The translations under genes and the position numbers were made by a program. From a virus (Duplodnaviria > Heunggongvirae > Uroviricota > Caudoviricetes), in the IMG/VR virus record IMGVR_UViG_2681813235_000001, positions 1 to 41,344 of that record: a DNA stretch of 41,344 nt; one strand, written 5' to 3'. Position 1 is the stretch's first letter, and each line of letters begins with the position of its first letter. The notes beneath the pieces were generated by a model. That model did not search any database and was not told where the DNA came from. It saw nothing but the letters and a program-made list of their open reading frames with translations. Below, piece after piece: positions 4,417 through 8,822 of the stretch.

Positions 4417-4713
4417 TTATACCTCTGAATCAATATCAACCTGGTGGCGGGCAATAGTTTCAACCATGTACCGGATGTGTTCTGCCATGCGTTCCTGAAA
4501 CTCAACATCGTCATCAAACGCACGGGTAATGGCTTTTTTGCTGGCCCCGTGGCGTTGCAAATGATCGATGCATAGCGATTCAAACAGGTGCTGGTGCAGG
4601 CCTTTTTCCATGTCGTCTGCCAGTTCTGCCTCTTTCTCTTCACGGGCGATCTGCTGGTAGTGACGCGCCCAGCTCTGAGCCTCAAGACGATCCTGAATGT
4701 AATAAGCGTTCAT
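4417..4713 (-). CDS. gam: Gam host-nuclease (RecBCD) inhibitor, GamS-length form
   Basis: 98-aa translation matches lambda GamS from memory ([21 protein letters not shown]...VDIDSEV). Confidence 0.9.
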
Positions 4714-4789
4714 GGCTGAACTCCTGAAAATGGCTGTGAAAATATCGCCCGCGAAATGCCAGGCTGATTAGGAAAACAGGAAAGGGGGG

Positions 4790-5200
4790 TTAGTGATTCA
4801 GGCCGTTACCGCGTCCGTCGAGAAAAACTTCCACGAGCAAATCACGGGTATAAGTGCGCTCGATGCCGCGATGCAGATAAAGCCGTCCGCGTAAATTAGC
4901 TGATGCAGTCCAGGTACCATCTTTGTGTTTGACCAGCATTCCTGGCATGACCGCACCTCGATTAACGGTCTGCGTTCCATAATGTTGATGAACCATAAAA
5001 ACTCCTGCCCGTAAGCTGGGCTGCTGAACATATAGAGACTTCTGCGCGTATTCAGGCGGTGGATGGCCGCCGGTTGTCATAACTAAGCCGCCTCGTTGAA
5101 GCGACTGAGGTATGAGGTGTTGAGTTGATTTCAGCTGGTCACACCGACGTTCACGCGTCCGTTTCACCCCTCGCACTCCCCGGAGCCTGCCGAAATTCAA
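4790..5200 (-). CDS. hypothetical first ORF of the leftward (pL-like) operon; start uncertain
   Basis: 136-aa ORF begins with TTG; in-frame ATG (MTTGGHPP...) has GAGG upstream; N-terminal region is Arg-rich (RLRGVRGVKRTRERR), reminiscent of N-type arginine-rich motifs, but no lambda N/Kil/CIII match. Confidence 0.3.
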   Translation of the reverse strand: MNFGRLRGVRGVKRTRERRCDQLKSTQHLIPQSLQRGGLVMTTGGHPPPEYAQKSLYVQQPSLRAGVFMVHQHYGTQTVNRGAVMPGMLVKHKDGTWTASANLRGRLYLHRGIERTYTRDLLVEVFLDGRGNGLNH

Positions 5201-5277
5201 GCTGCGGATCTAAGCGGTCATCGCAACGGTGAATCAGGCGGTTGCCGTATCGTTGTGTTGTTGCGACATGGTAATAA

Positions 5278-5321
5278 TAGCTATTGCTATTGGTGGTATC
5301 AATACTTATTGCTATTGATTG
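5278..5321. promoter_or_regulatory. putative oL-like operator cluster (direct repeats TTGCTATTG)
   Basis: TTGCTATTG at 5284-5292 and 5309-5317 plus near-copy TAGCTATTG 5278-5286; the 13-mer TTGCTATTGATTG (5309-5321) recurs at 7959-7971 next to the repressor gene. Confidence 0.4.
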
Positions 5322-5445
5322 ATGTGTTTTGATATTAACTGTTTGATAGCAAAAAGAATTAATTTTGTGACTTGCATCGCATAGCGATAACTGAAGGGAG
5401 GTTGTGGTGGTTTTTCGAACGGTTTGTGTGATGAGGGGAGGGGAC

Positions 5446-5473
5446 AAAAGAAAACCCGGCACGGTGGCCGGGC
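5446..5473 (-). terminator. Rho-independent terminator ending the repressor-linked operon (tIMM-like)
   Basis: Minus-strand RNA: CCCGGC-CACCGU-GCCGGG followed by UUUUCUUUU. Confidence 0.55.
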
Positions 5474-5637
5474 TAGATCTTAAAGTATTTATCTTTTAGA
5501 GATGTAGATGCAAAATTTTTTGCCTTTGAAAATTTTTTGTCATCAGAAGAGCTTATGAACTCATCTTTTTTGTAGGGAACCGCTAATGCTGCATCACGTC
5601 TGCGAGGCAGCTTACTTACTTCCTCGCACTTTTTCAT
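5473..5637 (-). CDS. unlisted small ORF (54 aa, Lys/Ser-rich) downstream of kinase
   Basis: Hand-translated ATG(5637)...TAG(5473): MKKCEEVSKLPRRRDAALAVPYKKDEFISSSDDKKFSKAKNFASTSLKDKYFKI; ATG is 2 nt after kinase stop; stop abuts the terminator hairpin. Confidence 0.35.
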   Translation of the reverse strand: MKKCEEVSKLPRRRDAALAVPYKKDEFISSSDDKKFSKAKNFASTSLKDKYFKI

Positions 5638-5639
5638 GA

Positions 5640-6686
5640 TCAGTTATCCTTTAATAACCTATACAGTTTTGTAGGGGTACATCCTGAGGATATTGTTAAG
5701 TTCGTAGCACGCCTTTTCCGCCCACCATCGTATAAACGAAAACCAGTAGTAGACGAATTTTCTGCGTCAAAAACTATAGACAGTATAACGTCCCCAGACT
5801 TTTTTTGCCATTCATATGTGCCGTTAGTTGGTTTTGTCATCTGTAGACGCCAGTCAAGAACGCCATCACTTATAGCTGAGAGATCGTTTAGTACGTCTAG
5901 TACGGATTGATATCTTTCATTTGGATCTACATGAATGCATTTGTTTACTATTGTTATCAATTTTTTATGTATGTGGGAAGGATACTCTTTTAATGGATAG
6001 GAGCCATTAATTATCGACTCTCTGAGTTGTTCAATCGTTCTAAATGCAGATCTTTCTCTTTCAAAATTATCATATCCAACACACATTCTATATATGGTTA
6101 ATCCTGCCTGATATATGTCATATGTGAAATTATAATCATTTGTTGATAAAGAAAAATATTCCGGTGGCACATGAAAATGATATCCAAACTCAGGCGCAGC
6201 TCTCGATTCCTCATTGACTAACTGAGACAATCCAAAGTCAGATAGCATGGCCTCATTTCTGTTTGATATCATGATGTTATTAGGTTTTATATCAAAATGC
6301 ATAAGACCTTTTGAGTGTATATGATAAAGCCCACTTAAAAATTGAATAGAATACCGTATTATCTCCCTGCTCGTAAGATTAATCTTTTTTATTAATTGGT
6401 TTAGCGAACCATTATGATAAAATGGCATGGCTATATAGATATTGCTCTCACATTGAGCAGCATACTGAACTTGCACAATATTTGGATGTGCATGTTTATA
6501 GAGAAGCCTTGCTTCATTAAAGTAGTCGTCGTGGTTAGTGTTTTCTTTTTTTTCTATTTCTTTAATCACCAAGTCATGAGCTAGGTGTCTGTCATGAGCC
6601 AGATATACTTTTGAAAAACAACCCTGTTCTTCTAGATCACGAATCCATTCGAATGCTACATCAGCTCTTTTGTATGGAGTCAGCAT
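5640..6686 (-). CDS. Hanks-type (eukaryotic-like) protein kinase
   Basis: 348 aa; kinase motifs visible in translation: Gly-rich loop region GCFSKVY, invariant-Lys region LVIKEI, catalytic loop HFDIKPNN, SDFG (DFG motif); ATG overlaps stop of upstream ORF (ATGCTGA); visibly AT-rich. Confidence 0.85.
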   Translation of the reverse strand: MLTPYKRADVAFEWIRDLEEQGCFSKVYLAHDRHLAHDLVIKEIEKKENTNHDDYFNEARLLYKHAHPNIVQVQYAAQCESNIYIAMPFYHNGSLNQLIKKINLTSREIIRYSIQFLSGLYHIHSKGLMHFDIKPNNIMISNRNEAMLSDFGLSQLVNEESRAAPEFGYHFHVPPEYFSLSTNDYNFTYDIYQAGLTIYRMCVGYDNFERERSAFRTIEQLRESIINGSYPLKEYPSHIHKKLITIVNKCIHVDPNERYQSVLDVLNDLSAISDGVLDWRLQMTKPTNGTYEWQKKSGDVILSIVFDAENSSTTGFRLYDGGRKRRATNLTISSGCTPTKLYRLLKDN

Positions 6687-7141
6687 CCCCTTACCTCCGC
6701 AGATAGTGCAGCCAAAACAGCTTCATTTGTTTCAGTTGTAAAACCAGAATTATCGATTCCATTTATATTACGGTGTGACTTCAATATTTCTTTATACTCG
6801 ATCTCTGTTAGGTTCAATGATGACTTCATACCAGATTTTCTAATGGTGTAATATCTTCTTACATCACTGCTTGAAAATGCTTCTTGAATAACAGCTTCTA
6901 TATAAAGGCGGTCAATGCTAAGATTATCAGAGTTTGATTCAGTAACGCGTATAGCAGCTAATTCAACATTATATAAATTAAGAATGTCGAGGATGTTATT
7001 TCGCACATACTTTAATTTTTCTGGTGTGTCTAAGGTCGAAGGTATTTTAATAACATCAACACATTTGAGTGCAGACTCATCAGTGCAATATACAACAAAA
7101 GATGTAACTTTGGGCGCCGCCCTAACACCTAGTATTCTCAT
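6680..7141 (-). CDS. hypothetical protein, first gene of the cassette downstream of the repressor
   Basis: 153-aa ORF, AT-rich, no recognisable motif; translationally coupled to the kinase. Confidence 0.5.
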   Translation of the reverse strand: MRILGVRAAPKVTSFVVYCTDESALKCVDVIKIPSTLDTPEKLKYVRNNILDILNLYNVELAAIRVTESNSDNLSIDRLYIEAVIQEAFSSSDVRRYYTIRKSGMKSSLNLTEIEYKEILKSHRNINGIDNSGFTTETNEAVLAALSAEVRGC

Positions 7142-7221
7142 TTTTTATATCCCATTTTAGATTCAGGCTGCGTTTCTGCAGCCTCTCTCATCACCCAAAT
7201 GTCTAATCAGGCTATTATTGA

Positions 7222-7914
7222 TTATCCATGTTTCCTGTATGTTTGCGGCATGCTCCCAATAACTTTCCCGAAGATAAACACCCGGTTCATCTCGTCTTTC
7301 TCGATTGGGTCCCACGGTGAGTAGCTCTTGTTATCAGAGATAACCAGCAGTTTATCCTTCATCATTTGCAGGCGCTTAACATGGGCTGTGTCGTCATACA
7401 GAAACGCATAGATACCATCACCGTCGAAAGATTTAACAGTGATATCAACGAACAGAAGATCACCTGGTTCGATCGTTCCTGACATGCTGTCACCGCGTAC
7501 GTTAATGATGCGGATATTTTCTGCCTTCCTGCCATCGAACATGTGACGAGCATCGTCAAACGAGTACTCAACCGAGCGTAGAACTTCTACAAACTCACGG
7601 TTGATGACTCCCGGCCCGGCACTCACTTCTATATCAAGAACGTCAATCTTGAAGTATTTGGGATGGTTGGCAGCAGGCTTCCCTGATTGTTGACCGTCAT
7701 TTCTCATCGGGCCTATGCCTGATGAGAGCCACTCTGTTCGAACACCCAATGCATTAGCTATTTCAACAATTTTTGTTGAGCCGCGTGCGTTGCCGCTTGT
7801 CAGTCTCCAGATTGTGGGTTGAGCTACGCCAGACGCCTTTGCAAGAGCGCCTTGAGACATTCCAGATTGTTCCATCGCTAGGTTTAAGCGATCAGCAAGA
7901 GTTTCTTTTTTCAT
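7222..7914 (-). CDS. CI-like prophage repressor (N-terminal HTH plus C-terminal LexA/S24-type autocleavage domain)
   Basis: N-terminal HTH (SQGALAKASGVAQPTIWRL); C-terminal region with Ser (VRGDSMSGT) and Lys (HVKRL) at expected S24 positions; ATG at 7914 (MKKETLADRL) with almost no leader, as for lambda pRM transcripts; divergent from a Cro-like gene. Confidence 0.8.
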   Translation of the reverse strand: MKKETLADRLNLAMEQSGMSQGALAKASGVAQPTIWRLTSGNARGSTKIVEIANALGVRTEWLSSGIGPMRNDGQQSGKPAANHPKYFKIDVLDIEVSAGPGVINREFVEVLRSVEYSFDDARHMFDGRKAENIRIINVRGDSMSGTIEPGDLLFVDITVKSFDGDGIYAFLYDDTAHVKRLQMMKDKLLVISDNKSYSPWDPIEKDEMNRVFIFGKVIGSMPQTYRKHG

Positions 7915-8024
7915 AAGTTTTAATTTATACGCTTGCGTATTGATGGTCAAAACACGTTTTGCTATTGATTGGGTTAATACGCATTGCTATTATCCATTCA
8001 TTGTAATACCAATAGGAATTGATA
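7915..8024. promoter_or_regulatory. oR-like divergent promoter/operator region
   Basis: Intergenic between divergent repressor and Cro-like genes; contains TTGCTATTGATTG (7959-7971), TTGCTATTA (7984-7992) and palindrome CAAAAC-ac-GTTTTG (~7948-7961). Confidence 0.5.
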
Positions 8025-8252
8025 ATGACAAATCAAACCATTCAACTCGCAATCAGTATTACAGGTAGTCAAAAACGACTGGCAGATCTATGCGGTGTAG
8101 CCCAGCCCACTGTTTGGCGTTGGCTACACGGTGGCGGAATTGATGCCCGCTATGTAATGAAAATTGTCTCAGCCACTGGTGGAAAGATTAAACCAGCAGA
8201 TATTCGTCCCGACCTTGCACCATTGTTTAACGCGAGTAATTCTGCCGCCTAA
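8025..8252 (+). CDS. Cro-like HTH regulator
   Basis: 75 aa from ATG 8025 (AGGAA upstream); HTH QKRLADLCGVAQPTVWRW; first gene of the rightward operon. Confidence 0.7.
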   Translation: MTNQTIQLAISITGSQKRLADLCGVAQPTVWRWLHGGGIDARYVMKIVSATGGKIKPADIRPDLAPLFNASNSAA

Positions 8253-8282
8253 ACTGCGGCGTTAACTGATAAGGCAATGATT

Positions 8283-8822
8283 ATGCAACCACTTACATAC
8301 CAACAGACTAGCGGATTTAGCCCGACTGCGGTGATAAATCGTTCTCAAATAAAACAGGTGCCAGGCCACGAAAAAATCCGTGATGCCGTTCGCGCCTGGT
8401 CGGCTGCAGATAATCAGGATGTTGTTGCCGCACTCATTGTGAATGAGTATCGGGAGCAGGGCGGCGGCACCATCGATTTCCCTGATGATGTCAGCCGTGC
8501 ACGCCAGAAGCTGTTCCGCTTCCTCGATAACAAATTCGATTCTGAAAAATACCGAAATAACGTGCGTGAACTGACCCCGGCAATTCTGGCGGTACTACCG
8601 CTGGAATATCGCGGTTACCTGGTTGAGCAGGATAGCTTCATGACTCGGTTGGCTGAAATGGAAAAGGAACTCAGTGAGGCAAAACAGGCTGTCATTCTCA
8701 ACGCACCACGCCACCAGAAACTGAAGGAGATGAGTGAAGGCATTGTGTCGATGTTTCGTGTGGACCCGGACCTGGCTGGTCCATTGATGGCGATGGTCAC
8801 CACCATGCTGGGGGCAATATGA
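8283..8822 (+). CDS. YdaT-family protein (CII-position regulator)
   Basis: Shares EY-x-RQGGG and PAILA-x-LP blocks with my recollection of E. coli Rac YdaT; lies between Cro-like and O genes. Confidence 0.55.
   Translation: MQPLTYQQTSGFSPTAVINRSQIKQVPGHEKIRDAVRAWSAADNQDVVAALIVNEYREQGGGTIDFPDDVSRARQKLFRFLDNKFDSEKYRNNVRELTPAILAVLPLEYRGYLVEQDSFMTRLAEMEKELSEAKQAVILNAPRHQKLKEMSEGIVSMFRVDPDLAGPLMAMVTTMLGAI

Follow-up and report, generated by a model that had tools for sequence, protein, structure and literature searches.

A conserved small gene between an Stk-type kinase and a putative terminator: predicted third member of a mobile prophage cassette

The window analysed here, the full 41,344 nucleotides (nt) of IMG/VR virus record IMGVR_UViG_2681813235_000001, carries a gene for an Stk-type Hanks kinase, and the entire gap from the kinase stop codon to the following putative terminator is occupied by one short open reading frame (ORF). 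This raises the question whether the frame is a gene and, if so, whether its product has anything to do with the kinase. An earlier note on this DNA had translated the frame by hand into 54 amino acids (aa) at 5473..5637; the translation was exact, on the minus strand, and reads from ATG to TAG MKKCEEVSKLPRRRDAALAVPYKKDEFISSSDDKKFSKAKNFASTSLKDKYFKI. Equally exact was its placing of the ATG 2 nt past the kinase stop (kinase TGA at 5642-5640, then TC, then ATG at 5637-5635). Its description of the product as Lys/Ser-rich and rich in Ser, Thr and Tyr holds for lysine, which is the most abundant residue (12 of 54), and fails for the others, as Ser, Thr and Tyr together account for only 10 of 54; the predicted protein of 6.3 kDa has an isoelectric point (pI) of 9.8 and a net charge of about +7. 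The label "unlisted" is true of that reader's own list, but a mechanical ORF list with a minimum length of 40 aa contains the frame, it is annotated in phage 933W as L0081, and GenBank has an entry for the exact protein. The analysis below leads to the view that 5473..5637 is very probably a real gene and a member of a cassette. That it encodes a translationally coupled small protein, disordered alone and acting as a partner of the kinase module, either as regulator or as substrate or adaptor, is a reading suggested by sequence comparison that we regard as an even proposition.

For a single 54-codon open frame at the local base composition (about 40% G+C) the probability of arising by chance is P ~0.015, and the remaining five frames over the ORF hold 2-7 stops each. 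With such a probability a chance frame in AT-rich DNA, which the earlier note had put forward as an alternative, could not be dismissed from the window alone, the less so as the frame is short and the RefSeq annotation pipeline PGAP does not call it in genomes that are identical to the window. The comparison proposed in that note, of synonymous with non-synonymous changes and of stops in homologues, was carried out on 66 fetched loci that represent 18 distinct nucleotide alleles and 16 proteins (loci and protein clusters are given below by our own L and P numbers). The frame is open in all 66, and divergent open frames come from Escherichia, Klebsiella, Serratia, Salmonella, Enterobacter lignolyticus, metagenome and IMG/VR contigs, with a length across Enterobacterales of 50-55 codons. 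The ratio of non-synonymous to synonymous substitution rates (dN/dS, by Nei-Gojobori) is 0.18-0.34 for the small ORF at dS up to ~1.0, compared with 0.04-0.21 for the kinase and 0.03-0.11 for the 153-aa gene in front of it. Between the window and L008 there are 21.4/128.8 non-synonymous versus 17.6/33.2 synonymous changes (Fisher p = 3e-5), and the comparison with L010 gives p = 0.005. Variable sites are in excess at the third codon position (29, 27 and 44 at positions 1, 2 and 3). The indels seen all keep the frame, P0016 having lost 4 codons and L052 having gained one; the C-terminus is frameshifted in three clusters of one member each (P0007, P0012, P0015). Since the sequence is under purifying selection, the frame is kept across divergence including the divergent cassettes described below, and indels stay in frame, a chance frame is rejected and has become scarcely credible; invariant residues, the full-length match to phrog_4063 and the conserved Shine-Dalgarno-like element, all set out below, point the same way.

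The identity of the gene follows from its surroundings. Window positions 5447..7204 match phage 933W 9911..11666 with 96.9% DNA identity, and the 933W annotation gives in this place, in order, tM, L0081 (54 aa, hypothetical), stk and L0083 (153 aa), so that the window ORF is an allele of L0081. The small protein shares 93% aa identity with L0081 (AAD25426.1; WP_000745483.1), with 7 nucleotide differences of which 4 are non-synonymous (C4R, S30P, N41S, A43T), and it matches phrog_4063 over its full length (expectation value (E) 3.4e-38, residues 1-54 on profile 1-54). The existence of the small gene was thus already known, as it has been annotated since the 933W genome and is grouped in PHROGs. 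Both GenBank and UniProt list the exact window protein under the name "hypothetical protein"; at least 1000 contigs encode it, and 223 of 5426 complete E. coli genomes have most of the stretch 5440-5700, which spans the terminator, the small ORF and the kinase 3' end. In RefSeq the ORF is unannotated in the four complete genomes listed as 100% identical to the window, and the 933W allele is annotated. PGAP is hence inconsistent on a conserved micro-protein, skipping the window allele and calling the 933W allele, which differs in four amino acids (L003 6001-6261, hits H91-H94). In the literature searched there is no mention of L0081 as a phage gene, of its RefSeq accession or of guessed locus tags.

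At the protein level the family is small and coherent. A word-indexed protein search returned 16 clusters at 65-98% identity, 13 of them 50 or 54 aa long, the source-named ones being from Escherichia, Serratia, Klebsiella, Salmonella and Enterobacter lignolyticus. A hidden Markov model scan of 1.84 billion representatives returned 10 clusters only, all of 50-55 aa save one of 80 aa, and none of these 10 fuses the small protein to another domain. Pattern scans of genome contigs gave 89 stretches with the small-protein alignment and 78 with the kinase alignment, none of which was confirmed by tblastn. Across 19 sequences M1, P11, R13, R14, A19, Y22, L47 and K50 are invariant, and K2, K3, R12, A16, A17, P21 and F52 nearly so, as is an acidic residue (D/E) at position 15. 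This yields a conserved core P11-R12R13R14-D15-A16A17L18A19-x-P21-Y22, in family terms P-RRR-[DE]-AALA-x-P-Y, and a C-terminal L47-x-x-K50-Y-F, the Ser/Thr-rich middle being the least conserved segment. The small protein found no match in a PDB sequence search (E up to 10), in Pfam (E up to 0.01) or in PADLOC (E up to 0.1), and Rfam covariance models found none on either strand of 4700..8400 (E up to 1). AlphaFold2 gives the small protein alone no confident fold (predicted local distance difference test 69, predicted template-modelling score 0.19).

In all family members examined, with kinase identity down to 55-60%, a purine run AAGGA, GAGG or AAGGG lies 7-9 nt 5' of the ATG and the spacing between kinase stop and ATG is 2 nt; the AAGGA-type run with this spacing is kept in L048 and L052-57, and GAGG or AAGGG with this spacing is kept in L068 and L071 despite a different kinase C-terminus. 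The start region is weakly structured (-4.5 kcal/mol, z -0.4). The 2-nt gap together with a Shine-Dalgarno-like element inside the kinase gene suggests a geometry of translational coupling. A fusion of kinase and small protein by frameshifting was considered and is ruled out by a TAA in the small-ORF frame three codons 5' of the ATG.

On its other side the small ORF runs into the hairpin. As had been proposed, its stop meets the terminator: the TAG at 5475-5473 overlaps the hairpin and forms its first stem pairs. Of the 8 base pairs in the hairpin 6 are G-C; its folding energy is -14.6 kcal/mol (z = -3.0 versus shuffles), and the tail TTCTTTTGTC follows. In the 933W record the equivalent tM is labelled "putative terminator for pM transcript". 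All listed alleles but L013 preserve the stem, in which compensatory changes occur, and the loops vary (in L061, for instance, CCCGGC/GCCGGG has become CCCCGC/GCGGGG), and in the most divergent family members, L068 and L071, the hairpin is displaced a few nt downstream. A G+C-rich hairpin followed by a U tract and carrying compensatory changes has the make-up of an intrinsic terminator, and we treat it as a putative one. The claim that the frame is fixed inside the transcription unit is borne out accordingly by the spacing and the Shine-Dalgarno-like run in every family member examined, and by a terminator-like hairpin after the ORF in all fetched alleles except L013 and L068. This tight fit could also mean that translation alone matters, in that ribosomes at the foot of the hairpin would keep Rho or RNases away from the 3' end of this mRNA or would modulate termination at tM, the peptide itself being irrelevant. 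A stop codon (TAA or TAG) does lie within the stem in all listed alleles but two (L065, which has one extra base, and L013, which has no hairpin), and the ORF does span the full gap. Yet it is the amino-acid sequence that is under purifying selection, with residues invariant over kinase divergence to 55%, and the ORF is kept in L068, L071 and L076-79, where the zero-spacing geometry is lost, which makes this explanation highly improbable.

The same arrangement recurs in very different places. In the family members looked up the order is constant, a gene of ~153 aa overlapping the start of a ~348-aa kinase gene, then 2 nt, the small gene and the hairpin with its T tract. This unit follows cI in lambdoid prophages and immunity regions (L010-12, L068-73), stands beside tail-fibre-assembly or P2-type tail genes (L008, L061, L065) or beside integrases or AlpA/AntA (L005-7, L062, L064), and adjoins thrS in Serratia (L004); a cluster of first-gene homologues (P0024) is source-named as plasmid-borne in Klebsiella variicola. 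Of the 10 representative clusters of the small protein, each one whose context was examined is either kinase-linked or belongs to the orphan lineage discussed below. Among the IMG/VR kinases 2 of 44 are disrupted, after 84 codons in L047 (3001-3255) and after 102 in L051 (2607-2915), and the small ORF downstream is intact in both. From this recurrent order, the ORF is very probably the third and last gene of a mobile three-gene cassette made up of a RuvC-fold protein, an Stk kinase, the small protein and a terminator. A distant cassette, whose first gene is 42% identical to that of the window, was also seen right after SMC-like and JetD_C-domain (Wadjet-like) genes in L075 (1-3585), a defence-island context outside prophages, on a contig that ends within the kinase.

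More distant cassettes (L076-L085) were reached through first-gene homologues 31-68% identical to P0075, whose own identity to the window protein is 59%. Nine of the 10 loci show a ~340-aa gene that carries a DFG kinase motif and is followed by an ORF of 50-66 aa starting between -4 and +10 nt from the stop of that gene; the exception is L081 with an 84-aa ORF. Five of the ten kinases also keep HxDxKPxN, and a clear hairpin comes after the 50-66-aa ORF in 8 of 9. The N-terminal motif is still recognisable in L076-L080 (PKREMLTTATPY, PSRDSSTKAIPY, KRREQTVSAKPS), and hhalign of this motif against the family gives E = 2.5e-4 at a probability of 43%. Of the arguments for a functional membership of the small gene in the kinase module, this conservation of position is the strongest. 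Strict synteny and co-divergence lend such a tie further indirect support: as kinase identity falls from 97 to 55-60%, small-protein identity falls in parallel from 93 to 42-44%, the N-terminal half (46-96%) being better preserved than the C-terminal half (19-89%).

The kinase itself shares 97% aa identity with 933W Stk and matches the PADLOC PD-T4-6 and mad6 kinase models; the closest solved sequences are CaMK1, PKR and Nek7. Stk is described as a prophage kinase that responds to HK97 infection with activation and exclusion (PMC3681748). Expression of stk is reported to depend on pRM and to be confined to stable lysogeny (PMC3430580). Homologues of 933W p23 (L0083) and p24 (L0084), the two genes upstream of stk, were matched to lysogen-specific spots on two-dimensional gels with a cI-like expression profile, at MASCOT scores not flagged as significant (PMC3342100). 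The immobilised pH gradient strips of that study extended to pH 7 at most, so that a small protein of this charge and size would not focus or resolve on them. In the window no terminator-like site lies between the cI-like gene and the cassette, and in the lysogen the cassette transcript probably starts from the cI maintenance promoter.

These elements can be joined into a proposal. In the lysogen the maintenance promoter would probably drive transcription of the cassette along with cI, and ribosomes that end the kinase would re-initiate 2 nt downstream, so that the small protein would be produced along with the kinase. Disordered on its own, it might bind the kinase module through P-RRR-[DE]-AALA-x-P-Y and, as a dedicated regulatory partner, most plausibly hold back or tune the kinase as long as no infecting phage has activated it. 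It may instead be a dedicated substrate or adaptor of the kinase. A pseudosubstrate-like restraint is attractive because of the RRxA-phi look of R13-R14-D15-A16-A17 and because the kinase is silent before infection; within the family R13 and R14 never vary and D/E15 and A16 hardly do, and the distant cassettes have PKREM.. or PSRDS.. instead. A role as dedicated substrate or adaptor is equally possible because Tyr22 is present without exception in the 19 family sequences; the Ser and Thr residues of the middle region are not conserved. That the small protein acts with or through the kinase, in whichever of these ways, has in our judgement about equal chances of being right and wrong, and that it is specifically an inhibitor is rather unlikely.

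Several observations weigh against tying the small protein to the kinase. PADLOC holds no model for the small protein or the RuvC-fold protein that matches at a meaningful E, the latter giving a marginal match only (tm_HEPN, E 0.015). Co-divergence of the kind described above is expected for any tightly linked genes and is no proof of interaction. The residue aligned by eye to Tyr22 is Ser, Lys or Phe in the distant positional homologues, which weakens the case for a simple phospho-acceptor and favours a binding residue over a strict phospho-acceptor. Cloned stk may suffice for HK97 exclusion, as Friedman et al. 2011 reportedly found, and in that case the small protein would be a modulator and not an obligatory inhibitor. 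Finally, one Salmonella prophage lineage (L013, L014, L060) has the small gene and the terminator without the kinase or the RuvC-fold gene; as these orphans have acquired new Shine-Dalgarno sequences, the protein may act independently, or the copies are relics.

In L013 and L014 (4608-5153) the order is cI, an unrelated 112-aa ORF, a hairpin, a new GGAGG and the small gene. In L060 (1244-1441) the small gene stands ~300 nt after cI, with GAGGGAAGGA as a new Shine-Dalgarno sequence and an in-frame N-terminal extension of 11 codons. Homology to the cassette starts exactly at the ATG in L013 and L014, or 5 nt earlier in L060, and ends past the terminator, which is degenerate in L013. The 112-aa ORF was considered as a remnant of the kinase or RuvC-fold gene and is ruled out by the absence of similarity, and a short left-hand homology in the orphan loci, considered as a remnant of the cassette, is the 3' end of cI.

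These orphans are one ground for a kinase-independent, sequence-specific role, in which the small protein could bind nucleic acids as a basic peptide, pair with the RuvC-fold protein or serve lysogeny or anti-defence on its own, and would simply be co-transferred with the cassette. Such a role would be suited by its strongly basic character, by an RRR cluster that stands before a helix-prone segment and recalls the Arg-rich motif of N proteins, and by the leader hairpin of the cassette, which is conserved with a GAAA/GAGA-type loop: at the same place 933W has GGTCGC-AGAGAT-GCGGCC, with base changes in both arms. This hairpin is, however, missing from the more divergent cassettes L008, L010, L068 and L071, whose small proteins keep the RRR, so that an N-like Arg-rich peptide binding the leader hairpin at 7184..7165 is unlikely. 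The orphans are also rare, being found on 1-4 contigs versus at least 1000 for each linked allele that was looked up exactly (window, 933W), and they form a single lineage (orphan-orphan dS 0.08) whose dN/dS of 0.9, on only ~11 changes, fits decaying relics; orphan versus linked copies give dN/dS 0.3-0.4. With every cluster of examined context either kinase-linked or of the orphan lineage, the kinase-independent role is a minor contender, which we think doubtful.

At the other extreme, an obligate three-part Stk system can be imagined, in which the RuvC-fold protein would be a sensor of phage recombination intermediates, the micro-protein a labile safety catch of the pseudosubstrate type, and the orphans decoys by which other prophages disarm Stk in the cells that they infect. 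HK97 gene 41 is reportedly the activator of Stk (Friedman et al. 2011), and by the numbering (L074 4176-4781 reads Gp40, erf, recombinase and Gp43 = kil) this gene appears to encode an Erf-like single-strand annealing protein. If this is correct, it would fit recombination sensing by the RuvC-fold partner. As a whole, such a system remains speculative and improbable.

The features of the cassette and of its neighbourhood are collected in Table 1.

Table 1. Positions of the cassette genes, their signals and the flanking elements in the window.
Feature	Position	Strand	Remarks
Probable OL/PL region	5269..5317	(-)	Two 24-nt direct repeats (5269-5292, 5294-5317) over promoter-like TTGATA-17-TATTAT (5302..5274); marks end of cI-operon slot
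Putative intrinsic terminator	5443..5474	(-)	Hairpin 5474..5453 and T-rich tail 5452..5443; corresponds to tM of 933W
Small protein gene, 54 aa	5473..5637	(-)	933W L0081 family, phrog_4063; basic, hydrophilic
AGGA, Shine-Dalgarno-like	5647..5650	(-)	Within final kinase codons (..LKDN and stop), 9 nt 5' of small-gene ATG
Stk-type Hanks kinase gene, 348 aa	5640..6686	(-)	Pfam Pkinase 1.2e-46; catalytic loop HFDIKPNN
First cassette gene, RuvC-fold protein, 153 aa	6680..7141	(-)	933W L0083; last codons overlap kinase start by 7 nt
Conserved leader hairpin AGGCTGC-AGAAAC-GCAGCCT	7165..7184	(-)	Context only; no U tract
cI-like repressor gene	7222..7914	(-)	Helix-turn-helix and S24 peptidase (Pfam Peptidase_S24, HTH_3); PGAP CDS in identical genome NZ_CP027462.1

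Homology to 933W ends at both edges of the cassette, and the window differs from 933W in having a different cI and in lacking both L0084 and an N gene downstream. The slot between cI and PL is a hotspot of cassette exchange, anchored on the right by the terminator. In Oslovirus Lyz12581Vzw (L066 2501-2548) the last 7 codons of the small ORF and the terminator stand behind a BsuBI-type restriction-modification pair, and in Lambda_4C10-type phages (L067 1501-1533) the terminator stretch alone stands behind another two-gene cassette. In NZ_CP027462.1 (L003; window 5031..5462) an identical prophage adjoins icd. It lacks an N gene in the interval from the PL region to kil, and PGAP annotates nothing there from kil to the kinase. 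Downstream of the window's own cI stop (TAA 7224-7222), a fossil 3' end of a repressor gene, CCTGATTAGACATTTGGGTGA, lies at 7191..7211 on the minus strand; it matches the true cI end in L060 and L014, and the sequence 5' of the first cassette gene in the non-lambdoid L004, L008, L061 and L064. This fossil within the cassette suggests that its mobilisation began behind a cI gene.

Among known systems the small gene agrees fully with L0081/phrog_4063, both in its match over the whole length and in its position after stk and before the terminator. In phage lambda the slot between cI and PL holds rexAB. Lambda rexA-rexB and other cI-operon exclusion morons such as 434 hex, which lie between cI and OL/PL, are expressed in the lysogen with the repressor, are closed by a terminator and exclude other phages (PMC3564112), share these features with the present cassette as we read it. 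Their proteins are unrelated to those of the cassette, and the slot is here swapped among cassettes. The small protein would share with PKI, the RI subunit of PKA and the kinase toxin-antitoxin pairs HipA-HipB and HipT-HipS the picture of a small, disordered, basic partner beside a silent kinase. PKI and PKA RI (RRxA-phi) are pseudosubstrate or peptide inhibitors of Hanks kinases, and R13-R14-D15-A16-A17 can be read in the same way, as a resemblance and not as membership, since there is no homology and distant cassettes do not preserve the Ala at the putative P0. Nor does the small protein look like a type II antitoxin of the HipB or HipS kind, having no DNA-binding domain, no Pfam or PADLOC domain, no PDB relative and no confident fold, and being encoded downstream of the kinase, where such antitoxins usually lie upstream. 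The adjacent kinase is clearly akin to the abortive-infection kinase Stk of 933W (Tyler & Friedman 2004; Friedman et al. 2011) and to PD-T4-6. Stk, Stk2 and PD-T4-6 are treated as single-gene systems in PMC3681748 and in the PADLOC models, whereas the kinase here always stands between a gene for a RuvC-fold protein and the small gene. The neighbours of the kinase defence system are not detailed in Vassallo 2022. Studies of Stk-type or PD-T4-6-like kinases that use the kinase gene alone may therefore miss two components, and the small gene is a concrete case of a conserved micro-protein that is dropped by an annotation pipeline in some of its alleles. Taken together, the comparison adds a modest increment to what is known of these systems, namely that the defence kinase Stk belongs to a conserved cassette of three genes, which also includes a micro-protein evolving together with the kinase and has a terminator of its own.

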